NCBI GenBank assembly: GCA_043381765.1
Contig: JBHJMP010000530.1
Coordinates: 1-49,493, forward strand
DNA length: 49,493 bases
Direction: 5' to 3'
Origin: Collodictyon triciliatum
Lineage: Eukaryota
Position numbers and translations under genes: made by a program. Shown piece after piece: positions 63 to 44,280 of this stretch; the first letter of the stretch is position 1; each line of letters opens with the position of its first letter. Under the pieces are notes generated by a model, which was given only the letters and a program-made list of their open reading frames with translations, made no database searches and had not been told where the DNA came from.

Positions 63-139
63 GAAAGACCACAATTCATCCAAATAGAGTATGATTTAAA
101 TATAATTATAACTGGAAAATAAAAGCCACATAATTTTAC

Positions 140-178
140 CTGCTAAATCGTGATGAAGAGCATATGTGTGATAAAACT
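140..178 (-). CDS. Possible small exon of a gene divergent from USP40
   Basis: On the minus strand, a 39-nt segment flanked by TGTAG and GTAAAA has an open frame (FYHTYALHHDLA). No family recognised. Confidence 0.25.
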
Positions 179-426
179 CTACATTGATATCATAAATATT
201 ACAAAAAAAGGTAGCCGTGTCTCGCCTTGTGCCTTCCTCGTCCCTTCCTTCATGGATCCGGCGAGTCAGATCCACTTGTTTGAGATTCGCGGCAAGGGTG
301 ACTCACCCACCGCGCAGAAAGAGTGCGTCCGATTGTTGCCTTCTGCTTCAGAAACGCCCAAGTTCCAAACAAACCCGGACGACAACACAACACATAGAAG
401 TTAACACCAGCAAAAGGCCGAGCGCA

Positions 427-3400
427 ATGTTTTCCGGGCTCTTCGACGAGTTTGAGGATGTTGCCGACTTCCAAACCCCCGCCAGCACCGGAGAAAAGTA
501 AGTATTCTGGATCGGTTCTGCAAACATCCCTTCCGTCTCTTCGAAAAGACTCTAGAGGGAGAGATAGAGAGATTCCAGATCCTGCAACCTTTTTGAGATG
601 GGCCTGTTGACTCTTGCGGGCCACTCTAATCTGTTCTCCCTGCTCTGCATGGCTCTTAGAAATAGGGCGACACAAACTTATGTACCTGAGGAAGGACGAT
701 CCTCATGCGGCTTTGCTGGGCTGGATAATCAGTGAGTTTTGCTTCTTTCTTTGTTGCTCCCTTCCATCTTTGCACAAAAAAAGCCCGGATACGCTCAGCT
801 ACTCCATCTGGGTCACTCCGTCTAGCAGCTGGCAATCATTATCTCCTGCCACATGCCTCAATGGCCAAATCAGCCCCACCTTACTCGTTACATTATGAGA
901 CCGTGAATGCTTACCTGGTGACTCACAAAATGTACCATGACAAAATAAAATGAAAGAGGAGCCACTTGCTACTTGAACAGCCTAATCCAAACACTCTTCA
1001 TGACTCCGGAAGTCCGACACGAAGTGCTCCGCTTTGTATTTGAGTCACGGTATTGTAAACATGAAACGAAAACTCTTCTCTTCGCAAAAAAAAAATAATA
1101 AATAAATAAATAAAAAAATAAAAATAAAAATATCAAGAGAAATTTGCGTGTCCCTATTGTAAAGATTCTTTTGAAACAAAACCATTACCACACCCGACTT
1201 GTTGAAATCGCTCCAACAAGGTCCCGCAAGTGGATTCCTCTTCGGCTCCAACGTCTCTTTTGTGATCTTCTCGCAACAAACAAGTAAATTGACGAATAAA
1301 TATACACGTGCCCAGAATGAATCTCACACTACCGTTATATATATTTCAAATATCTCATTCAATCATCCTCTCTCCATTTTTAAAAACGTCACCTGAAAAC
1401 AAAAGTTTGTGTTAATAACGCCTTTGTCGTATCTTTTTTTTTTTTACTTACCTTTAGTTTGTTCCTATGATATGAGATTACCAAGGCTGGGTATTTACTC
1501 TTTACTTTCTTGAAATCACTTTTTGTATAACATTTCAAAACAGGCGATCTGTCAGCACCATGGACCTCACTAAAAGCTTCGGCTGGCAACACCATGACGC
1601 AAGAGTTCAGCATGACGTGCACGAATTTATTCGGTAGATATTTCCCAAACAACTTTATCATCGAAAAGAAAGATAAAAAATGGACGATAATTTAAAATCC
1701 CTTTCATACATAATTTTGGCATATTTCGATGTATTCAAATAAATTTTGTTATAAATCCATGAATGATGATGAATGCCCACGTTTTCTTATTTACAAACGT
1801 GTGTCAGTGTGCTCATGGATTATTTGGAGCAATCGCTAGAGGGAACGCCGTACGCTGGTCGTATCGAGGGTCTATTTCGAGGAATCCAATCGAATTATAT
1901 TGTGTGTTCCTCCTGTGGATGTATGTAACTTCTCCATAATATATCTACCAAGGTCAAGCACCTATTAAGATAACACACCCCACTAAACTAAAATATCTAG
2001 ACCGCAGCGAGCGTGAGGAAGTCTTCCTTGATTTTCAAATTCAAGTCCGAGGACTCAACAGCCTAGAAGCTGGGATAGAAAAGTATCTTGAAGTAGAAAT
2101 TTTGGACGGGGACAACAAGTAATTGCAAATCTCGCTATATCTTGAAATTTGACCGGGTTCATCAAGTTACTCATATCCATTTGCAACTACAAAGATATTC
2201 TTGTGATGGATGCCAAAGCAAGGTTCGTGCATCAAAAGGCATTCGTATTCAAAAGCTCCCCACTATCCTGGCTGTGTCGATGATGCGCTTTGAATATGAT
2301 TGGCAAAGGGTGTGACTTCAATTCGCTTGCAATTAATTTATGATTCTTTAATGCATTTGTCTTATTCACACACTTGAGCTCTTTTTTGTCCCTTTTTTCT
2401 TTTTCAATTCTGCTCATGACGTTGTTTCTGTATCATATTTTATCACCTAGGATTGTCGAATGAAGCTAGACCATGTCTGCAGTTTCCCAGATACCTTGGA
2501 TATGTCCAAATATGTTACAGAAATTCCGGCAGAGGACGCATTATACGAGCTCTACTCTGTGGTGATTCACTTGGGTGGTGCGTACGGGGGCCATTATCAT
2601 GCATACATAAGGGACATTTACCAAAGCCAAGCAGCTTCGAACGAGGAGGGTCAAACGACATCAGCTTGGTTTGACTTTGATGACTCCAGAGTGTCCTCCA
2701 TCCAACCCTCTCGAATCACTGGGCAGTTTGGTGGCAAATCAGAGTGTGCCTGTAAGTAACTGTAGCTATGTTATAAATGAAATATATCACGGTTTCATTC
2801 AATAGAATTCTCAAAATGTTTTAACCTTTACAAACGGCATGTAGCATTATTTCTCATATATCCAAGATTGAATAACCTTTTCCTGTCTTCCTATCTTCCC
2901 CTTCATATCTTTCAAAGACATGCTTTTTTACCGCAAAAAAACCGCCCATCCTCCGGAGCGATCAACTGTTGATGCCTCTTCCATACCGGATACCATCATG
3001 CGTGAAATTCAAGAAGAAAATGAATCTTACGTTAAGAAGAAAGTTGAAGCCGAAGTAAAGGCGAATAGTATCAATATAATAGTGATGCTTCCTTATCACT
3101 TGAGGATGGAAAATGGAGGAGAAGACCTTGTCGGAGCAGCTCCACAGCCATTTTTTTCCTTGGTCAACAAAGAGGACAAGAATTCATCAGAAAATGGAAT
3201 TTCACTGCAAGTAGACAAGCGTTGGACAATCGAGGAACTTAAAGCATTCCTCATATCTCACGAAATCGACTTTGATCCGGGTTTGTAAATATCCTGCATC
3301 AATTACATAGCCAAATCATCTGCATTAAGCGCGCAATAGATAAAAGATAAAGTATTTGTAAATTTTAGTTCGCCTTACACTCGAAAGTCTCACATATTGT

Positions 3401-6400
3401 AGTTATATTTCTTTTTTTTTTCTCTATTAAAAATGCATATCTCTATAAAAACTAGCCCATCGGTTTGATGAAATTCGTGTGCAAGCTCATCGAGTCAAAT
3501 TGATGCCTCTTGAATATTCTGAATCAAGCACACTTGTAACTGCACGGTTCTACAATTTGATGCGTGTGATAATATGGAATGGAGATTCTATTCAGGACCA
3601 GCCGATGTCTGCCAAGGGAGATTTACTAAAAATTTCTGGAGTTCATTTCATAGACGAGACAACTACAACTAATTTTGTGGTCGAGGTTCATGAATACGAG
3701 TTATCCAATACACTTTGTTCAAAATTGACTGACATCTGCCTCATACCTTCAGATGAGTTGATAGTGTGGGTGGTAAGTCTAGCATTTTTTTTTTTTTACA
3801 TAATTATGCTAATTTTTCATATAAACTATAAATTTCATGGAGACGACTTTTAACATGGACATTTAAAAACAAAATAAATGAAAAATCATGGTTTCAAGTG
3901 CTCAATTATTATTCCACATGACTACGTTTTTCATTATCCATTAAAATAATCTAAACCATGTATTCGACAGATGAATGGAGTAGGTTTGACAAAGTTGAAC
4001 AGAACCGGAAACCTCATTGAGAATGGAATCAACTCATCAGTAAAAATTGGTGTCGAGAGAAAGACTACTGAGCAGGCAAGATTTGATAATATACTTTATG
4101 ATATTCACTTTAAAGAAACTGCAATTTTTTTTTTTGTGACTTAAATTTCCAAGTCTTGTTTCTCAGTTTTTTTTCTTTTACCTCTCGTATCAAAAGATGC
4201 TGCTATTCTGTAAAACTCCTAGCTAATGTAAAATAAATAAATATTGAAACGATTCAGAAACCAGCTCTCGCAGTAGCATACCAAATATCATCCTCCCAGA
4301 ACATGGAAGTTTTCATCACCGTATCCCAAGAAGATTATCTTACCCATGTAGGAGAGAAGAATAGAACATTTGTATTGAACGAAACCACAAATTTATACGA
4401 GCGCGCCATACCAGTGTCAAGACATAGTTCCTTAGGAACATTAAAGAGCTCAATAATGGAATTTTTACCACCAGGGTTTCAACTTAAAAGACTTCTTTTG
4501 AGAAGGTTGCCACTATTTTTTTCTTCTGAAGTGTCTCATGAATCAGATGTATTCCTTTAGAAAATGAAATAGTCATTATTGGATTAATTTGAAATTTTCA
4601 AAAACATATCAATTTTAAAGAACAGGTAGAACAATCGTCCTCTTTCTTTACAACAAACTTGGCTACATTTTAGAACTCTTCCTGGGAACGGTGTTGGAGA
4701 TGCCCTGCTAAAAGATGAACAGCTCTTGAAGAACTTGGGAATTTACGAAAATGACTGTCTCCGTCTAGAATTCCTGGAAAAGCCAGTTTCATCTTTCTCT
4801 GTTCGCTTCCAGTTTATACCGTCAGGGAAAGATTTTTCATCTGCTTCTGAAGATGATGTATATGTTCTTCCCGTGGAGCCTTCGTGGACATTGTCTAAAT
4901 GGTTTTTGAATATATGATTTCTTTTGTAAAACAACTAATAATAATCATAATAAAAAACACGCATTGCCCCTCAAAGTTCATCATAATACATACAAGCCAT
5001 ATGCACCACCAAGGAAAGATAAAATCAAAACAAAGTTAAATATATTACGGCTTAAATCATATGCAAGAACTAGAATGATTATAAATATTATATACGAATG
5101 ATTGACCATGCTTTATCTTTGAAAATTCCAACCTTTTTTTTTTAAAAAAAATCTCGCAAATTTGTTCGGAAATAATTAAGTAAGGAGCTCATGGCTGAAA
5201 TCGTGGCTCGCCCAGCCGAAAACCTGAGGATTCGGGAGTCTGATACATGGGAACATCCTGCTCGAATACTTTCGGTAACTTTCAAAAAATACCATCAAAA
5301 CATCTTATTATTTTGACATAATAGACATATACATTTCCATATTATTGCATTTAATTGTTTCAAGTCTCTCTTTTCTTTTCTTTTCTTTTTTGTTATTTTT
5401 TGTTCTGAAAACCTCATGAAATGTAGAATGAACAAGAAACAATTAATGGAGAGCACATACAAAACGGAGACCTTCTATTTCTTGAAGAAGGAAAGGTACC
5501 ATTTTTTTAACTCTTTTATTCATAATACCTAATTATCAGTTGTAATTAGAATGAATACTGCCAAAGGTTCCGCCAAAGGGTCAGATATCGATACATGTTA
5601 TGGTTGACCAGTTCATCAAGACCTCGAGTGGGGTGCTGCCCACAACAGAAGTAAGCCCATCTATCTCATTTTTTTATTTGTCTTCATACACGAAACTCTT
5701 TCAATATTGCCAAAGATGTTTTGAACCAATCAAAAGCACGAAAATGGCAAGATAAGTTTTAAACCCATGAGATTATTTATTTGTATTTCTTATGACACAC
5801 CATCTCCATCCCAAACCGGTCATAATACCATACATTTCATAGAATCATAGTTGAATATTTGAATGTGCCTCAGTTGATGGGCATATGTTTCCTTATTTTA
5901 GGCTTACGAGCCTTTTGTCCATGCTTTCCAAGTAACCAAGCCTTTGTCTTTGTTCAAAATGGATGTAATGTCCTCTTTGACCTTAAACGAATTCAAAGAC
6001 CAGCTTTGTCAGATCGAATTATTCAGCGGCAAGGTAGTACTGATGTCTTTCTTTTTCTTTTTCCTTTTCTTTTTTAAAAGAATAACAAAAAAAAATAATA
6101 AATCGAAATAAATTTCATGCCCTTTTCATATCCTGTACTCTTCTAATGCTTCCACTTCGCCCTCATCAATGCGGAATATAGGGGTATGCTCCATCTAAGC
6201 TCAGAATCTGGGATGGTGGAAGATTTGTCCGCTTCGGTTCCAAAACACTGAAGCAAAACAATATAACCGATGGAAGAACAGTTACCGTGCAAATATCCTT
6301 CATCTTTTTTTTTTAATAGAACATTCACCAATTTTTTAAACAAGAAAATATCAAGAAACACAATTACACGTATTCCTCTTGATTGAATCACCATCGATTA

Positions 6401-7545
6401 TCGATTAATTCAACGTTTTCGCTATATTTCGTATATTTTCATAACTTTTATATGAACATCTTGGACAAGGAGGATGGTGAAGTCCCCATTAGTGCAATAG
6501 TGCTTCAGGTGCACCGACGTTACAGAAACTTAGAGGGGAACTTTGTTCTGGGAGAGCCTTTTGAGGTCGTCATTGACAATGATGGCCAGCATATACCGCC
6601 GAGCCTTCTGGAGACAACACTACAAAATCTTTCGCCCAGTGGCGACCCCACATCTGCTTCCATTCGAATCGCAAAGTACGTTCCTACCACCGGCCACTGG
6701 ACTGTGTTGGGAGACACCTCGATGAAGGCAGCCATTTCTAAGCTGGAGGCCAAAGAAAGAGAAGACATCGGCCAGTCCACAGCAAACAACAACACCACCA
6801 CTGAAGCAAAAGTTGCAGAAATGGCGTCACAAAGTTTTACACCACCTACAAACACTTCCCAGGAAAATCAAACATCCGCTGCCGGAGTAACGAAAAGTGT
6901 AGATGAAGAGGCTGGGCTAGCGAATGCAAACAGGAAAGAATTGCAACCGAGCCCGGATGACTCCATTCCCGAACGCTTATCACCAGAACCGCCGTTTGTT
7001 GCTGGTGGCCTGAAGGAGGAGCTATCGGCCGTGGGTGAGACTCACACCACAGCGACCACCATTGTGGAGGCAGCACAGAAAAACTCCCAGCCAGCACAAA
7101 CCGAGAGCGAAGGCGACAATCTGCACAACCCGCCAGCCCCACCGCCACCCGTAAGCTTGTCCCTGAAACTTCCAAGATTATTGGCGTATGTGGTACGGGG
7201 CTGTCCGTCTTTGCTCTGCGTTCTTGTTGCCTTTTTGTATGCTGGTTGTTTGCCCCGTCCCATCACCCGGCTCTTTTTTTATTTTTATTTTATTTTTTTA
7301 TTTTATTAATGCGTATGTGCTTTTCTTGGCTGCGAATCTTGACACCTGTAACTTTACATGTGACTTTTTACGCACGGGACTCAGGCGCCTCCGGCTCCGA
7401 GGAGCGCCAAGGGACAGGGGCAGGCCAAGAGTGGAAAGGCCATCCAGAACATCCGCGGACACCCGTTCTTTCTCAAGGACGGAGGTAAGAACATTTGTGA
7501 TTGAGCGAGTCGGTTATATGGATGTGCACGCATGTGTGTGTGTGT

Positions 7546-11751: not shown

Positions 11752-12343
11752 CGTGCCATAAAGCAATGTGCACCCTCCACACGCTCATGGCCCAGGCCAC
11801 ACCCGCGCCCTTCAAAGAATCCCGTGTGTGTGTGTGCTAGAGAGACATGGAAGGGGTTGAAGAGCCGCCCGCACACACGGGGACTCACGGAACCGCCCAT
11901 AGCGCCCGCTCCTTGTGGGCGAATCCGCGTTGCACACGCCCGGTGGAGCAACGAGTAATGGACGGGGGCAACAAGGAACAGAAGATTCGATGCTGCTGCT
12001 CGTTCCTGCTCCGTATATACCAGACCCGCCCATATAAATACCCATCGGATGGATGGCGCGCCGGCTGTCGGGGATTATATTGGCCGGACCTGCGCAGCAG
12101 CACATCTAAACGGAACACCAGCGCTCCTGAAGGCACATCTCGAGACACTCAAGCATTGCAGATACAGCGCCCGTGGGACGGCTGGCGGTATTGACTGGCT
12201 GGCGATGTTAGCCTCGGTCGATGTCTTATCTGGCTGCTTTCCCTCCGCCCTTCCTCCGCCCTTTCTCACCCCGTATTCCGTATTCCGGCCCTGTTCTGAC
12301 GGCGGACCGTCCCCTGTAGGCAACCGCAGCGACACAACCGGCC

Positions 12344-15300
12344 ATGGAAGCCCCAATCTTCGACGCGTCATCCATCCAGCTGGGCAGCGAACTCGGCAGA
12401 GGCGGCTTCGGCGCCGTCGTGAAGGCCACCCTGAACGTCCACACAACCGTGGCTGTGAAGATCATCCAGGACCTGTTGCAGCCCGTCGGGGACATCCAAA
12501 AGGAGGCCAACTTGATGATCCGCGTCACACATCCGCACGTCGCAAAGTGCTTCGGCATGTACCGCGATGGGAGGGTGGTGGGCATGGTCATGGAGTATGC
12601 TGACGCAGGCAGTCTGTCGCGCGCCATCCACGCCAAGCCCGGCGGCCTCTCCTACGCCGAGATATGCATGTACGGCAGCCAGGTCTCGTCCGGCATGGAG
12701 GCGCTCTACGCTGTCTACAACATTGCTCATCGTGACATCAAGCCGGCAAACATCATCATGGTGACGTCCTACGACCCGGAGGCTCGCTCGGCCCGCCTGA
12801 CTGCAAAAATCACCGACTTTGGCCTTTCCAAGATGAAAAAAACAACCGCCGATGTATCCCACATGAATCCCAGCAGCGGCTTTCGGGGGACTGTCACATA
12901 CGCGGCCCCCGAGTGCTTGGGTATCAATTGCGAGAAGGAGGAGCACCTCGGTGAAAAAAGCGATGTCTACTCCTTCAGTCTTGTCCTGCACGAAATGTGC
13001 TCTGGAGAGATCCCATACGCCGGCTTCAACGTCTCCAAATTCATCACCGAGATGACCAAAGGAAAACGTATGCCAATTCCTGCAAACATGACCAACGACA
13101 TGGCCGAGATTGTCACCAGGGCATGGAGGCAGGACCCGACCCAGCGCCCATCCTTCACCCAAATCACAAAGTCTCTCAATAGAATGTCCGATAATCTTTC
13201 CCGGGGGATTACTTCGACTCCGATTCCTGACATTGTCCGGCTCCTGGACCCACCTCAGGCAAGCAGTTTGGTTGGTTCCCTCAACAAAGGTGCTGTGCTT
13301 TCACCCAGAAACGAGCCACCCCGACCAATCGCCCAAGTAAATCCTTCTGCAGTTACATCTCCCAGAGCCTCGGTTAAGGTGGAGCCTCAAAAGGATTCTG
13401 CTAGTTCTGCTTCCAAGACAGGAGACAATCGCACCGGAAAAATTAACATCCCTGCAATATTCAACGCATGTTCAAGCGGCGGATTGCCTATCAAGACTGG
13501 CCCACTCCCAAAGTCTTCAAGTACATGGTCGCAAAACCCAAACGCCCCTTTAAATGTACAGAGTGAACAAACATATCCTAAAAGTACAGAGGTCGTACCT
13601 GAAAGCCGGACCGAATATAACCCGAGAAGTCCTCCACAAGTATTGTCTCCTAGAAACTCGATCATGGTAATCATCAACTTTCATATGACCGACTGCTTCA
13701 ACCATCGACAACGCATTATTTCAACCTATCGGGCCCAATTATTCATTGTTTCTCTCCATCCTTTTACTCCCCTCTCTGAATTTCTCTCTTTCATTTTCCT
13801 GCTATTCCACTTGTATCCTTCCCCTTACTCTCTTTGTCTTTGTTTTTCACTTTCCCTGTCGTAATAGGAAGATGTACCTCTCAATATTTTCCCTGTGGGA
13901 AGCCAGGTAAAGCTGGCAGAGAATTACAAACTGTATGGTGATGCAACAAGTGGACCTCTTCGTCCTGGTTTGCTAGGGACTGTGGTGGCCATGTCCTCCG
14001 GCCCAAATCCAAAGTACAAAGTCAAGGACCAAAACAACACCGAATGGTGGTATGAATTTGGAGCGCTTTCTCTCTTTACAGGAATGACAGAGCGCATTTC
14101 TTTTCCAAAAGTCCCCCCAGCACCAAGTGTCCAAAGCAACTTTGTATCTCCAAGAAATTCTGCTGCCATGGCAAAGCCACAAGGAAAAGTCACGTCTGAC
14201 CTGGCTCGAGCTGGGCTTAAAGTTTGTCGAGGACCTGATTGGAACTGGGCAGAGCAGGATGGTGGCAAAGGCGAGGTAGGTGTGTTGATGGAGCCAACAG
14301 TTAAAGGTTGGTGGTTTGTGGAGTGGGAATCAGGAAACTGCAACCACTACCGTGTTGGTGGAGAAGGGTGCTTTGACCTTGTGTTTGTAGACCCATGGAA
14401 GCAAGCATCCGAGTCTGATATCCCCATCGGGACTTATGTGATTCTATCGCAAGGCTTCAAGGATTGCCCCGATGCAGCAAACGGACCACTGCAGCCCGGA
14501 GATGTTGGTATTGTCAAGGAAAACGACAAATCAAGCAAGCCTTACAAGGTAGAAACAGCATCAGGCAAGGTCTACTGGTACAAATCTAGCGTCTTGCAGA
14601 AGTTTGATAGCTCCTCTGTAGCTGTGGGAGATAAAGTAACCAAGGTGCTTGCTCGGTCTGGATTGAAAGTGTGCCGAGGTCCAGACTGGAAATGGGGGAA
14701 TGCAGACGGCGGGAAGGACAGTGTGGGCGTGCTCATCGAATCACCATCACAAGGGTATTGGAAGGTCAAATGGCAGACCAACGAGATGGGAACCTACCGA
14801 GTAGGGGCAGAGGGTGCCTTCGACCTTAAATTTGCAAAAAACGAAAACTCTGTCACCAGTCGGCCGAAAGTGGGAGGGTATGTTAGACTATCGAATTGCT
14901 CTCAAAGTGAAAGTTCATCAGGCCCACTCTCTCTTCAAGATGTAGGACTAGTGATTCAATACAACAGCTCGAGTAAACCATATCAAATTCGAGGGCCATC
15001 TGGAAAACAAGGATGGTATGATACTTACTCAGTTCTAACTTGCGAAGCGCCGGCCAGTGGTGTTGGTTCTGTCATTACAGCGTTGAACGTGAAAGATGGT
15101 TTGCGTGTCTGTAGAGGGCCAAATTGGAACTCAGGCAACCAAGACGGAGGAAAAGGTAATCTTGGCACGATTGAAGCTGCCTCTGGTAGGGAGGGCTGGT
15201 GGAATGTGCGCTGGGACAACGGGTACGTAGGCAAGCATCGCGTGGGTGCCGAATCTTCTTTTGATTTGGAATATGCCGACCAAAGTTCCAAGGCTCCTCT

Positions 15301-16801
15301 TATTTCCAAGCTCAATGTTGGTGACTACGTGAAGCTGGTGCGCAATTTTAGAGATTTCGAAGACACAGTTGATGGAACCATGAAGCCTGACCAGCTGGGA
15401 TTAGTGGTGAGTGTAGAAGAATCGAGTAAGCCTTACAAAATCAAAGCTGAAAACGGGAAAACCTGGTGGTACACGGGAGCTGCCTTGATGAAATCAGGCT
15501 CAGAGTGCCCAAAGTCAGCTGGGAGCAAAGTGACTGCACTAAACGCAAAGGTGGGATTAAGGGTGCGTCGCGGACCGGGATGGACATCAGGCAACCAGGA
15601 TGGAGGGAAAGGTAAGTCAGGAAAGTTGAAGAATGAGGCTCGAGTGGGTGTTTGGACCGTTGTATGGGACACAGATGATTCAGGAAATTACTGTGTCGGT
15701 GAAAACGATGTATACGAACTTGAAATATCAGATGCGCCATTGCCAGCTCCACCAGCTCCAACAGCTCCAACAGCTCCACTAGTACCAAAAGCAACGACGA
15801 GTATAGTGGGTAGCAAAGTTGTACTTGCAAAGGGATACGAGAGCCACGGAGATGCCAAGGACGGCCCGTTGACACCCGGAGTGGAAGGGGTTGTGGTCGC
15901 GGATGACGGGTCAACCAAGCCGTACAAAGTGAAGGGCCCGAGCGGGAAGGAGTGGTGGTACCACAAAGAAGCGCTGACAACTCCAGGAAGTGCAAACGCC
16001 GTGCACCATCTGGCCGGGCAGCGCGTCACAGAGTCGAACGCAAAGGCGGGCCTGGCCGTGTGCCGCGGGCCGGACTGGAAGTGGGGCGACCAGGACGGCG
16101 GGAACGGGGCGGTCGGGACGCTGAGAGAGGGGTCGTCCAGCAGGGGCTGGTTCAAAGTGGAGTGGGCCAACGGCAACTCAAACAACTACCGGGTCGGCGC
16201 CGACGGCAGCCACGACCTGGTCTTTGCGGGAGGGGCGGTTTCAGGCAGCATCACGGTGGGCAGCAAGGTTGTGCTGGCGCGCAGGTTCATGAGGCACGGA
16301 GATGCCAAGGACGGCCCGCTGTCGCCGGGAATCCAGGGCACGGTTGTTGCGGACGACGGGTCGACCAAGCCGTACAAGGTGCGTGCGCCGAACGGGCGGG
16401 AGTGGTGGTATCACAAGGACGCAGTGACCACTCCAGGAAGTGCAAACGCCGTGCACCATCTGGCCGGGCAGCGTGTCACAGAGTCGAACGCAAAGGCGGG
16501 CCTGGCCGTGTGCCGCGGGCCGGACTGGAAGTGGGGCGACCAGGACGGCGGGAACGGGGCGGTCGGGATGCTGAAGCGGGCGGACACCAAAGGCTGGTTC
16601 AAGGTGGAGTGGGCCAACGGCAACTCAAACAACTACCGGGTCGGCGCCGACGGCTGCCACGACCTGGTCTTTTCCCTGAACCCGGAGGGCGCAGACTCGG
16701 ACGCCGACCAAGACTCCGACTCCGGCTCAGACTCCGGGGTCCCGGCCAACCTGCAGGGCCTGCTTCTGCTGCTCGCACTGCGCCGCGCCCTGGCCGACTA
16801 G
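12344..16801 (+). CDS. TKL-group Ser/Thr kinase with six tandem [SH3-like + MIB/HERC2] dyads (about 1418 aa, two exons)
   Basis: Kinase motifs GRGGFG, VAVK, HRDIKPAN, DFG, YAAPE, SDVYSF, W..DP..RPSF. A phase-0 GT-AG intron at 13667-13867 joins the 12344 and 13895 ORFs in frame. Six copies of the MIB/HERC2 signature (V.RGP.W....DGG...G...W.V.W......Y.VG.....DL) alternate with six GPL.PG..G.V.....KPYKV....G..WWY repeats. Confidence 0.9.
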
Positions 16802-37900: not shown

Positions 37901-40295
37901 ATAGTATATACATTATAGAAAGGAAGAAGAAAAAAACTCTTGCAAAAAAAAAAAGAAGGAATTAGACAACAATGGACGGTATATAAGCAGAAATTGAATG
38001 GGTGAAGGGGGTACCAAAGTGATGGGCTCATTCATTTGCTTTCCATTTGTTATAAGGTACATTCCTTCAAGCTCTGCTTTTGCACCTTGCGGTTCCCTTT
38101 CTTGGGTGTCAGATTCTGCATCTTCTTTATTCGACTCAACTGGTCGGGTTGAAGAACTTTGCTCATCAGGATTCTCTTGACTTGTTAGGAGCTATGTATT
38201 TATTTATTTATTTTTATTTTATTATATATTTTTTTTGTAAATATGAGAGGATGCTCAAAGGCAAAAAGTGTGCTGACAGGCATATGAATAGTTGAGAAGA
38301 AAATTGCCCATGCATGTAGAATGTTGATTTAAGTGTGTATACATGATACTGAGTAATGAATTAGATTAAATAACTATTTGGGACTTGAACTGCAGATTAT
38401 TTTTTAGCAAAAGTTTTTTACGTCATCCTCGATAGAGTCTTCAACATCCCATCCGTCATGGTCATCATGATCGCCTTTTTTTTCATTATGCTCTTCAACT
38501 ACATCCGCACGGTCTGTCTCGATAGATATTTCATCTCCAATAATCCCCACCTCCTTAGGTTTCATGTACTTTAGCTTTTCAGTAGCCTTGCGTCTTTCAA
38601 GGATACAACAATTAAGCTACATATAAAAATAAATCAGTTGTGAGCTTATAGTCAAAGTGTTTGATTGGCAAATAAATATATGTAATGTCAATGTCTTTGT
38701 AAAATGAATTGACCATTTGTAGCTTTTGGAAAATCAAGCAGTATCTTGTATTCGGAAGTCCAATTGTGACTCTAGGGATTGTGATAGAGTTTTCCCAATG
38801 CCAGCGCAACTCGTGTGTTATTTCTTTCCAAAGAAGGCTCATGGCTAGTTAGTTGGTTTTATGAGTGACTTGTATTATCAATTATATTAAAAGATCGTGC
38901 AATTCTTATAAAGCATGATATGCTGTATTTTTGACTGACTTCGAAGCGGTGGTAATTCATCGACAAACCTATTATTCCAGGCATATCACTCATGTAATGA
39001 GCCACCAGACTTAGCAATGAACCTGGTGGTGCACCTTTGATGGGCGAGGGCTTTTGGGTCAAATATTTCATGAGTAAAATACAACTTATAAATTCACTTC
39101 AAGAAAGAAATTTCGAACCCCGAAAGTGTATCAATCATCTCTTTTCTTTATTCGATTCCAAGGAAGGTATAAATGTCATATAACAGGCTGTAGGATAATC
39201 GAATAAACGGTGGAGGGAGAGAAAAACCTTGGATAATTCTGGATCTGCTGTCTGATGGTCAAACATATCTTGAAGAACGGCATTTATGTCAGAAGCTGAA
39301 GGAAGTTTCGACGATTGGATGCTGTTGGCAATTGTTTTCAAGATTCCGCTGCCCCAGTCCATCTCTGGATGCGGCGTAATACCAGCTATGCATCCCAAAC
39401 TCATTATTTGTGCCTCTTTTTTATAAAATTTTAACAAAGTCTTGTATCATGAACATCCAAACCGCATTTGATTGAAAAAATAAAAAAAAATGCTTTTTCA
39501 AATAAAATACATGGTGGTAGAACTGTGAATGATTGAAGAACTTCGGTTTCTTTCATTGTAACAAGAATCTTTCGAAAGGTTCGAGAATATGACACGCTCA
39601 GAGGGTCGATACTTTTTGGATTAAAATACGAGATTCAGAAAACAGAAACTGTAAGTTTTAAATATGTACAGATAAATATTATTATTGAATGCAAAATCTT
39701 AATTATGAATGTATTTAACTTTTTGGAAGAAAAAAGGAAAAAGGAAATGTATTACTTTGTTCTGTGTGTTATGTCAATTAGCCAGTTCGGTGCGTCTTTG
39801 GGCTTCAGATGAGAGAAAGATCCGTTGTCAATTAACTCATCCTCTGCAAAATTGCTCCATATGGCACTCAGTCTTACAGCTACGGTTTCCCATGCAAGGT
39901 TTAGGTGATGAATATTTGAAATTGGTTTAACTTCAACAAATTGTCTTGGATGGTGTTGGACTTTAAATGAATCGAGATTTGATTCATATATATATATATT
40001 CGCCACTTCAAGGATATGGCTTAGTTATCTAATTTTTTGACATTACATTCTATTGCATGAGAAGTGCTCGAAAGGAAATATACATTCAATAGGGTCTAAA
40101 GTCGGTCCCCAAGCAACAGAGGCCAACCAGTCAGTGGGTTGGATGTATGCATGGCTCGACGATGCAATATGTGCAACATCCTTTGCCTTAATCCATGCAC
40201 CTCTCCAAGAGTCGCGGCTGTTGTTTGTAAATGAAAGGGTATAGCTCAATTTAGCTGTCAAGTAAATAAGCTCGCCTCGAGGAACATTCCCGCCC
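34989..40295 (-). CDS. RAB3GAP1: Rab3 GTPase-activating protein catalytic subunit (5' end missing, interrupted by N-gap 35588-36330)
   Basis: Spliced motifs LLWKEITHELRWHWE, CLIFQKLQM|LNCCILERR, TEDMIQRQQE, RARLQSASLFS|DMQAFKAANPGALLEDFVRWHSPRDW, GKLSQRMTHPGNLW, LYDYTKEAE. The tentative last exon beyond the gap (NMYTAIK..LRLCFG, stop 34989-34991) is less certain. Confidence 0.85.
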
Positions 40296-40616: not shown

Positions 40617-43600
40617 TTCGATAGCATATTATGCTGCCTATGCTGTACAATCTTATCCCTTGGATATGAGTCAGTACAACAAGCTCTTCTCCACCACAAG
40701 AATACCGAAGTAGTTGTCTCTCTTTGTCCCAAAATATCATACCTTAGTATGACCTATCCGTTTTTCATTGAAATAATCATTGTTTTCGAGAAAAACCAAC
40801 GAAATTGATACATTTGATTTAGCCTTTAACAATTGATTTGATTGACACTAGGGTTGGACGTGATGATATCAAGATTCCGAGCAATCCCTCAACGTATGTA
40901 TTCTATATTCTGTTTCTACCATTTTTAATTAAGTTTCCCTATGATCATTATAAAATCAGTTAGTATTTGTATACCAACACTAAACCATACAACATAAATA
41001 ATTGTCTCGTGATTTATCAATTGTATGCCATCTAAGTACATGTATTTTAACAGAAACATAATTGTGATGTCAAAAAATCGCTTCTTCAAAATCGATGGCC
41101 TGGGTACTTACGGTCAATGGAAGACTGAAGCCGAGCTAGAAAGTGAAATTCTTGGGATTTTGAAGGTTGCTACATGTCCCCGAATGTCAAATTATGTGAT
41201 TGATATCCTTTTCCTTTTGGTTTTCTTTCGGTTTTCTTTTAGTTTTCTTTTAGTCTTCTTTTGGTTTTCTTTTGGTTTTCTTTTGGTTTTCTTTTGGTTT
41301 TCTTTTGGTTTTCTTTTGGTTTTCTTTTGGTTTTCTTTTGGTTTTCCTTTGGTTTTCCTTTGCTTTGTCTCAACTCTTATTTTATCTCGAAATTATTCTT
41401 TTCAATTCACATCAACATATCTATAGAGAACTGAAAGTGGACACGGTCCTGCAGTTGGTGCGTTAACAACAGAAGAGCGGTTGGTGCCTCATATATAATC
41501 TTCATTTTTTATTTCATCCATTCCCATCCATTTTTTATTTAATCATTCATCGAATTGTTGTGCACAAGACAAGCTGAACTATCTCGCTTTTATTCATTGT
41601 TATTACGCATTTGCTACTCATTACGACGAGGTTATTTATTGTTTTTTGTACTTTCCTTCATGTCGAATATATCATGTAGTGATACGTGGGCCAATGCTCG
41701 TGCTCATTTAGGGGTATGGTAAATTTTCCAAAAATTACGTTGTTCGCCTTTCTTTTTCTTTCTATCTCTATCTCTATCTCTATCTCTATCTCTATCTCTA
41801 TCTCTATCTCTATCTCTATCTCTATCTCTATCTCTATCTCTATCTCTATCTCTATCTCTATCTCTTTTACCTTATTTTTTCGCCGTGTCATATACTAATA
41901 ATCATCGCTTGATATTCCAGACAAATCCAAAGAATCGCGATGTTCTGGACGTTATTGATGGAGCGCTCTTTGTTGTGGCTCTGGACGATATCAAGCCGCC
42001 AACAAACGACGAAGAATGTGTGAAGGCTTTTTTGCATGGAGAGACAAGGTGATGTCCATTCTAGATAGTACGAAAGCAATTTTTGAACCTTCCTTGCGCC
42101 CCAGAAAAAGTAGAGAAATTTAATCATATTTATACAAAAGCAATCGTTGGTTCGACAAGTCTTTCTCTTTGATTGTTTCTAAAAATGGAGCCAGTGCTGT
42201 TAACTTCGAGCATGCATGGGGTGATGGCGTCTCTGTTCTCAGGTAACCCCATGCGTATATTCGTATGCCTCCAAATCTGCTTGCAATCCTGCAACTTTTG
42301 TATACTGATTAAAATCTGTTTCATTTTTACTTCACTGCTTTTTTTCTTTTACAAATAAATAATTATTCACAATGCCTTACCAACTCAAACCGTATTTTTT
42401 TTTAAAAAAAATGTATCATGTTTTGGTTATATGTGCAGATACACCAACGAAGTCAACGAAGAAAGTTTCAAGCAACCTAGTTGGTGGCAAGAAGGCGCTG
42501 TGGCTCCAAAGGATTCTGCCGCAGAACTCTCCTTTGTCGTTGATGAAAAGGTAATTTGGATTTGCCGCCGTTTATTATTCATTTAATATAGAGTTCTTGT
42601 ATTTTCCAATATTACAGCGAAGGGAGTGGCAGGTTAGATATCTGAAATTTTTTCTTAGTGATTCCGTGTTTTCTTTTCTATTCGCGCAGACCAAGGCATC
42701 GATCGAAGTTGCCAGCAAAAAGATTGAAACTACATCAGCTGCTCTTCAAACCAAAGTAACAACATGCGCGAATCAGATAAATGATTATCCATCACAACCA
42801 CCATACTCAGTAGCTACGGTAGTACTCGATAAGATGGAAGACACGTTCGATTACTCGTAACTATCACAGGTTTTCAGTTTCAATGGATTTGGAAAAGAGT
42901 TTTTGAAGAAGATGAATATCTCTCCTGATGGGGTGGCGCAAATGGCATTCCAAGTTGCATATCATCGCCAGTATGGGAAGGTTGTGTCCACATATGAATC
43001 TGCTAGTACCGCTGGGTTTAAGGTAAATAAATCATTGTGGTTATATGTTATTAGCTTCATTCATAAATGTGCTTTTGTATTAATTTTTTCATTATTTCCT
43101 CTCTTTTTTTCCCGATAATTAATATTAATTCTGAATTTCACTTTGTCAAGGCCGGTCGTACGGAGACAATTCGTTCTTGCAATAAAGTTTCAAGCAAGTT
43201 TGTGGAAGTCTTCAACAACCCTGCTAAAATCCCTGAATACGATGACCTTGTAAGGATTGTGTACATCAAAAAGCTTATTTCATTCATTTAGGGATGGTGC
43301 ATGTAATTTAAACGTATATAATAATTTTTAAATATCCTTCTGCTTTGATGATATAGGCACTGAAGGCTAAATCCTTGCGCCAAGCTGTCGATAATCACAG
43401 AAACATCTCCAAAGATGCTGCCATTGGACAAGTTCCATTTTTTTCATTTTTTTCCCTTCCTTACCTTTCTATTTTCTTTTTCTTTTTCTTTTTCTTTTTC
43501 TTTTTCTTTTTCTTTTTCTTTTTCTTTTTCTTTTTCTTTTTCTTTTTCTTTTTCTTTTTCTTTTTCTCTTGTTTGTTTCATGGACAAGCGCTGCATCAAG

Positions 43601-44280
43601 CGGATAGAAATGTGTAAATGTATTGGTGCCTCAATTGCCCTTCTCATCTACAATGATTCATCTTCAGGGAATAGACCGCCACTTGTTTGCTCTTGCCAAT
43701 ATCGCTGCTGAACACTCATCAAAGAATACCGCTGGAAAAATACCCGAAATATTCACAGACAAAGTATCTATTGAAAACATATATATGCGTGTGGTTGTTT
43801 GCCTTTGACGATGGGCAGTGAAAAGATAATACCCTGAGAATATGCTCCCTCATATGATTTATGGAGTGTGGTGACAAGCTATATCATCCGTTCTTGTGAA
43901 CTATTTCTAAATGTGCGCTTATACAGGCATGGCAGTTGATGAATCACAACATCCTGAGCACGTCGACACTCTCGAGCGAATTTATTGAGGGAGGTGGCTT
44001 TGGCCCTGTTGTTGCTGATGGATACGGAATCGGCTACGCTGTCTTGGATGACTTTGGAAGATTTGTCCTGAGCTCGTACAAGGTCTTGTCTTTTTCTCTT
44101 TTTTTCTTCTCTTTTTTTCTCTCTTTTTCAACATATAACAAAATTCCTAAATAGAGCGAGAAGGAGACTGTGGAATTTGGAGAGAATATCACCAAGGCGC
44201 TCGATGACATCGGAAAGCTTCTGGCGTGGGAAAAGGAGTCGGCCCCAAGGAAAAGCGGGAAAGAGGCAGAGACCCAGTAA
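40617..44280 (+). CDS. CPT2: Carnitine O-palmitoyltransferase 2-like (5' end missing)
   Basis: [33 protein letters not shown], catalytic [81 protein letters not shown]. Stop at 44278-44280. Confidence 0.9.
41213..41360 (+). repeat. (TTTTGGTTTTC)n 11-mer intronic repeat
   Basis: Seen directly. Confidence 0.85.
41761..41865 (+). repeat. (TCTATC)n intronic microsatellite
   Basis: Seen directly. Confidence 0.95.
43471..43566 (+). repeat. (TTTTTC)n intronic microsatellite
   Basis: Seen directly. Confidence 0.95.

Follow-up and report, generated by a model that had tools for sequence, protein, structure and literature searches.

A U12-type AT-AC intron in a USP40-like gene of a diphylleid-like CRuMs protist, with the minor-spliceosome genes of its genome

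The USP40-like gene near the start of the 49,493-nucleotide window (the whole stretch of DNA that was analyzed) contains a 165-nt phase-0 intron with AT-AC ends, its last letters being GAAC at 6457. RNA contigs from two studies join position 6292 to 6458, and the intron is therefore confirmed as real by the RNA joint rather than by its donor motif, which alone is not above chance. We consider it highly probable (about 95%) that the intron genuinely belongs to the U12 class with AT-AC ends, as the initial annotation had proposed, and that it is removed by a complete minor spliceosome, known here from genes, in a diphylleid-like CRuMs protist. The minor spliceosome is ancient and ancestral, so its retention in CRuMs was to be expected, and the single USP40 intron is ordinary in this respect. 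What deserves follow-up is the possible skew of the minor introns toward AT-AC ends, along with the CC form of U6atac and a detectable U4atac in a CRuMs genome.

The AT-AC intron and its host gene

Removal of the 16 introns from positions 1545-7485 (Table 1) yields a stop-free frame of 1093 amino acids in which TVQ is joined to ILDKEDGEV in phase 0, exactly the in-frame junction first suggested, whereas retention of the intron introduces stops. One exon encodes a UCH domain, and a homolog search with this exon returned 40 proteins, the named ones being mostly USP40 or USP40-like, with no other USP among them. The label USP40 thus fits the gene, judging from the UCH domain and the annotation of the closest homologs, features that the predicted protein shares with the USP40 deubiquitinase family. 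The best homologs come from Diphylleia rotans (55% identity over 916 aa) and Rigifila ramosa (41% over 333 aa), and on the strength of these protein similarities the host is diphylleid-like and belongs to CRuMs, the sister group of Amorphea (PMC11603278). A metagenome scan for further USP40 loci produced no relative in 476 pattern matches, so that the intron position is not comparable in orthologous genes.

Table 1. Features of the USP40-like gene and of its AT-AC intron, in window coordinates
Feature	Position	Strand	Remarks
Modeled portion of USP40-like gene	1545..7485	+	17 exons, 16 introns (14 GT-AG, 1 GC-AG, 1 AT-AC); gene ends not fixed
GC-AG major-type intron, same gene	4076..4257	+	Spliced in X1 and X2, after shifting the joint by its 3 ambiguous letters
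Upstream coding exon	6182..6292	+	Phase 0, 3' end ...GRTVTVQ; RNA contigs, reading frame, alignment to D. rotans USP40
U12-type AT-AC intron, 165 nt	6293..6457	+	Joint 6292>6458, AT..AC, in X1 and X3
U12 5' splice site ATATCCTTC	6293..6301	+	Complementary to 5' end of U11 of the same genome
Putative branch site TTTTCATAAC	6436..6445	+	Against U12 snRNA, 1 wobble and 1 mismatch; branch A 6444 predicted from sequence
3' splice site AC	6456..6457	+	10 nt downstream of branch motif; sequence and RNA joint
Downstream coding exon	6458..7150	+	First residues ILDKEDGEV; RNA contigs, reading frame

RNA contigs of four runs (X1-X4) were placed on positions 100-7450 of the window. The joint of 6292 to 6458 that the initial annotation had called for was seen in two of the four runs, namely X1 (study P1; a presumed RNA run that does yield spliced contigs) and X3 (study P2, a metatranscriptome from freshwater). 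It slides by two letters, and AT..AC is the only recognized pair among the possible cuts. The X4 contig covers the downstream exon only, from 6458, and X2 provided no contig spanning 6292/6458. The best 15 of 19 joints comprise 13 with GT-AG ends, one that can be read as GC-AG (4076-4257), and the AT-AC joint of 6293-6457. Contigs of X1 and X2 show isolated single-site differences to the assembly, and these runs probably represent other strains. A further spliced transcript, with higher contig depth, lies upstream of the USP40 model (282-1082, joint 497>660).

The same RNA data bear on the reading that the true intron is of the GT-AG type, running from 6281 or 6287 to 6469 or 6472, with the AT-AC motif present by chance. 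Such an intron would keep the frame, the number of RTATCCTT motifs in the window does not exceed chance, four weaker joints lie outside the best 15 of 19, and an X2 contig has its start at 6469, next to the competing AG; the loose end of that contig, however, is library adapter, so it bridges nothing. Both bridging contigs (X1 and X3) instead use 6292>6458, and a joint from the GT at 6281 or 6287 to the AG at 6469 is absent among the best 15 of 19. Moreover, the GT-AG alternatives, although in frame, would remove six to nine residues that are kept in D. rotans and Rigifila, whose USP40 proteins align unbroken across the 6292/6458 junction. This reading is thus largely refuted, and we regard it as vanishingly unlikely.

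The splice signals of the AT-AC intron are those of the U12 type, with an imperfect branch site. The donor ATATCCTTC at 6293, described at the outset as an exact U12 5' splice-site consensus, does match RTATCCTT and is used as the donor by the RNA contigs. By itself, this motif is no more than chance in the window, where six copies compare with an expectation of 3.5 and 12 of 100 shuffles contain at least as many. Three of the remaining five sites lie, by eye, within apparent major introns (41203, 43332, and 38599-38606 on the minus strand); the other two are at 40010 and 13813. At the 3' end, the branch motif anticipated before the AC is present as TTTCATAAC at 6437-6445, but it stands 10 nt, rather than about 12 nt, from the final AC, and its match to TTTCCTTAAC is broken by one wobble and one mismatch. 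The putative branch A at 6444 would lie 13 nt from the intron end, inside the 10-20 nt range for a TTCCTTAAC-like branch site of U12 introns. A CCATAAC branch variant is listed for human NEDD1 (Olthof 2019; PMC6717393).

Elsewhere in the window, a multi-exon gene at about 40850-44200 carries ATATCCTT sites within apparent major introns, and at 12320-16801 a protein kinase ORF precedes a long ORF with repeated modules. We take the former gene to be a carnitine acyltransferase and the repeated modules to be MIB/HERC2-like.

Minor snRNAs, proteins, and the route of excision

Searches with Rfam models, using the cut-off of each minor snRNA model, identified one gene each for U6atac (75.7 bits), U12 (72.1), and U11 (55.3) above the cut-off, with none in 14 control genomes. 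One U4atac scored 47.4 bits (E 1.7e-5), under its cut-off of 53 bits yet beating U4 within the clan, and two separate U4 genes were found besides it. The proposed retention of U11, U12, U4atac, and U6atac is thus corroborated by all four genes, that of U4atac being sub-threshold. The U4atac-U6atac duplex reaches -32.2 kcal/mol, which none of 500 shuffles matched, and in full-length folds U4atac binds U6atac with -11.7 compared to -4.2 for U4. The U12-U6atac duplex is no better than shuffles, 253 of 500 being equal or better. Both the 5' end of U11 (AAAAAGGG) and the branch-recognition stretch of U12 (GUAAGGAAAA) are retained.

U6atac was found as a single copy (locus L001, 1501-1616; G000:C2465), and by eye the adjoining gene is presumably a glycolipid transfer protein. 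Its box reads GCCGA, as opposed to AAGGA in vertebrates, and pairs with the donor of the USP40 intron at only -0.9 kcal/mol; the pairing of AAGGA with the donor is lacking here. GCCGA is a known natural variant, and membership in the minor spliceosome is not excluded by it. The idea that the box is a new form of U6atac was rejected, given that it is the published CC variant, a [GU]CCGA box with similarly poor pairing to ordinary U12 donors that occurs in Trichoplax, cnidarians, sponge, Acanthamoeba, Physarum, moss, and oomycetes, with the ancestral state left open (PMC2396436; Davila Lopez 2008). The present host differs from those in being a member of CRuMs, sister to Amorphea, which do not appear in the consulted passages of that survey.

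Among minor-spliceosome proteins, four of the six families searched yielded matching exons, namely, CENATAC, SNRNP25, TXNL4B, and SCNM1. The CENATAC exon has its best match in D. rotans (58%), and the gene therefore does not derive from an unrelated contaminant. A second DIM1 gene is closest to TXNL4B, and the SCNM1 match lies in its zinc finger. PDCD7 and zf-U11-48K had no match in the exon-by-exon search of the fragmented assembly, where negatives are weak. Of the proteins named in the initial annotation, SNRNP25 is represented by a matching exon. A ATATCCTT site in the SNRNP25-like gene, considered as a self-regulating minor intron, was discarded, as the reading frame places it inside an ordinary GT-AG intron.

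These genes also speak to the reading that the intron is a U12 relic and that the snRNA genes are pseudogenes or stem from a contaminant. The fragmentation of the assembly (75 Mb in 14,576 contigs) and the weak score of U4atac favor it. The precise splicing, the matched complementarity of U4atac and U6atac, the diphylleid affinity of CENATAC, and dozens of further AT-AC candidates stand against it, as does the presence of only one full eukaryotic SSU rRNA, a number to be read as at least one because it comes from a stricter first look. We therefore judge a relic or contaminant extremely unlikely. The 18S rRNA gene (L005, G000:C1045:6387-8539) is AT-rich and, with about 2150 nt, exceeds the 1831-position model; a bacterial-type SSU rRNA with a tRNA nearby (L006, G000:C834) is probably mitochondrial.

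A third reading accepts the AT-AC intron as real but assigns its excision to the major spliceosome. U2-type AT-AC introns are known among sodium-channel introns, and both the imperfect branch site and the poor pairing of the donor with U6atac would suit such an assignment. However, introns of this class have G at donor position +5 (PMC2831892) and lack U12 signals, whereas here positions +5 and +6 are CC within a full U12 donor, the branch spacing matches the 6-10 nt observed in 38 of the 40 passing AT-AC candidates described below, and the minor snRNAs are present. We consider excision by the major spliceosome very unlikely.

Under removal by the minor spliceosome, the known pathway predicts that the 5' end of U11 would pair with donor positions +4 to +8 and U12 with the branch site, so that U11/U12 would recognize donor and branch together. 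U4atac/U6atac.U5 would join next, with CENATAC and TXNL4B presumably supporting the AT-AC ends; both proteins are required for AT-AN/AT-AC introns in human and Arabidopsis (PMC11039992). Because the pairing between the CC-variant U6atac and the donor is poor, a situation also known from Acanthamoeba and oomycetes, recognition at this step probably leans on proteins.

The genome-wide complement of U12-type introns

To survey further U12-type introns, four combinations of donor and branch patterns, with equal donor strictness and gap range, were each compared with their own reversed control across intron lengths of about 70-280 nt in the fragmented assembly, by motif. AT-AC introns exceeded the control with both TYCTTAAC (44 vs. 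19) and YCTTGAC branches (93 vs. 26), whereas the GT-AG counts were 6 vs. 24 and 41 vs. 36, respectively. A single coding/intron classifier trained on the window, which passes 15 of its 16 training introns (a circular figure), accepted 15/39 (TYCTTAAC) and 25/85 (YCTTGAC) AT-AC candidates, 1/4 and 8/34 GT-AG candidates, and 287 and 227 of 3000 decoys. Accordingly, 40 of the 49 passing candidates genome-wide are AT-AC, by motifs and a crude classifier; this count was made before collapsing two donors shared by the GT-AG sets and two AT-AC pairs and one GT-AG pair of near-duplicates, and collapsing duplicates gives 38 AT-AC and 8 GT-AG. Some passes are implausible by eye (L039, L168/L216, L192, L208), and some real-looking introns fail, among others L110 (GT-AG) and L052, L079, and L183 (AT-AC). 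L168 and L216 are near-identical Rab-like loci in which ATATCCTTTC directly follows a plausible exon end, with the called AC leading to an implausible downstream frame. Among 52 exon pairs scanned, Pfam profiles ran on across the junctions of four AT-AC candidates (dynein twice, G-alpha, and PI3K) and two GT-AG candidates.

For calibration, a hand count was made of the human entries in 125 rows, or 2 of 12 parts, of a published table (Olthof 2019; PMC6717393). These rows comprise 33 AT-AC and 92 GT-AG introns, of which the same motif filter passes 13 and 24; the filter favors AT-AC, yet the human AT-AC share among passes is 13/37 (35%), compared to 40/49 here (Fisher p 1.6e-5). After correction, the AT-AC share would be about 75-80% of roughly 110-160 introns in total, a motif-based estimate that assumes GT-AG branch sites here no looser than human ones, and the share would still be 51% if all GT-AG sites were real. 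The minor introns of this organism thus seem, from their motifs, to be unusually often AT-AC. The stronger statement that GT-AG minor introns are almost missing, based on the TYCTTAAC-only comparison, was abandoned when looser and YCTTGAC searches found real ones. Indeed, the GT-AG U12 intron of a Derlin gene (L240) has a branch site outside both strict patterns, that is, the survey misses introns of this kind. An exact short-gap pattern gave 0 matches, its gap being too short for introns of this genome, and a loose AT-AC pattern (639 vs. 403 in the control, multi-counted) was set aside as mostly noise.

Of the 40 passing AT-AC candidates, 10 are in phase 0, 19 in phase 1, and 11 in phase 2. 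A skew against phase 0 is the classic pattern of minor introns.

Several candidates bear on the age of these introns. USP40 does not occur in eight supplementary files on mammalian minor introns from Olthof 2019 (PMC6717393), the first of which lists only USP2, USP10, USP14, and USP21 among USP genes; as consulted, these mammalian tables also lack dyneins, ATP2B, PI4K, ABCA, GNA, RAB7, NEK, PIK3C, and several other candidate hosts. Conversely, exon-end triplets in the table, weak PDB alignments, and the presumed neighboring human residues provide leads to sites that appear to be common with mammals in NR2C2AP-like (L084), formin (L193), EML-like (L159), AP4S1-like (L139), SLC44-like (L094), and Derlin (L240) genes. 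The EML-like intron is AT-AC here and GT-AG in mammals.

Three paralog pairs have a U12 intron position in common, namely L042/L079 (presumably ABCA-like), L074/L161 (presumably PI4K-like), and L121/L136 (Ca-ATPase). At one phase-1 position, two dynein heavy chain paralogs carry an AT-AC (L038) and a GT-AG U12-type intron (L110), an apparent subtype switch. The RPB5 intron (L233, about 1311-1507) follows the exon-end triplet that also precedes the human U12 intron, is major GT-AG here, and looks converted. So does the intron of the second of two Derlin paralogs whose introns share a codon position: L240 has a U12 GT-AG intron and L241 a major GT-AG one. ATG3 here has no intron at the supposed human U12 position, and a search for the Vac14 family returned several paralogs. 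The apparent conversions of RPB5 and Derlin accord with a published observation of more frequent conversion among GT-AG minor introns (PMC2831892).

Relation to other lineages and significance

Compared with human and mouse U12-type introns that have AT-AC ends (Olthof 2019; PMC6717393), the USP40 intron is alike in its ATATCCTT donor, in a branch near the AC, and in being one minor intron amid many major ones. The differences are the AT-AC share (about 26% in human vs. about 75-80% here, by motif estimate), the GCCGA instead of AAGGA in U6atac, and a host gene outside the mammalian hosts in those tables. The AT-AC share is 47% in Drosophila (PMC7367187) and 77% (196/253) in Blastocystis ST1 (Larue and Roy 2023; PMC10639083), the latter close to the approximately 76% estimated here. 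The minor introns of Blastocystis, however, are about 40 nt long, and 49% are in phase 0, whereas those found here measure about 85-275 nt within the searched range, with 10/40 in phase 0. The U4atac gene is detectable in this genome, whereas outside opisthokonts it was rarely found in the material consulted from PMC11347168. We found no report of minor splicing in CRuMs among the papers listed by our literature searches, although species tables of large surveys could hold an entry; terms for CRuMs splicing drew a blank in the consulted parts of PMC10492846, PMC11603278, PMC11347168, and the supplement of PMC9887622.

A broader scenario, which we offer tentatively and with slightly less than even confidence, is that in this CRuMs lineage a complete minor spliceosome, its U6atac of the CC type, serves introns of which about three-quarters are AT-AC. 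GT-AG minor introns would have been drained by conversion to the major type, whereas AT-AC introns would have been trapped and perhaps newly gained where mammals have no minor intron (USP40, dyneins, G-alpha, Rab7, and Ca-ATPases). If this is true, the AT-AC majority would be the inverse of the situation in animals and plants, Blastocystis being the only match in the literature consulted, and this lineage, as sister to Amorphea, would tip the ancestral state of U6atac toward the CC form.

The present analysis contributes evidence, backed by transcripts, for the retention of the minor spliceosome in CRuMs, the sister group of Amorphea. It also provides a data point on whether the ancestral U6atac was of the CC or AG form and on whether the U4atac function in non-opisthokonts is served by a genuine U4atac or by a U4 hybrid. 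In practical terms, gene finders limited to GT-AG introns would produce wrongly spliced models for around a hundred genes in this genome. Should the AT-AC skew be borne out, this free-living organism would lend itself to testing subtype-biased conversion and, possibly, the gain of minor introns.
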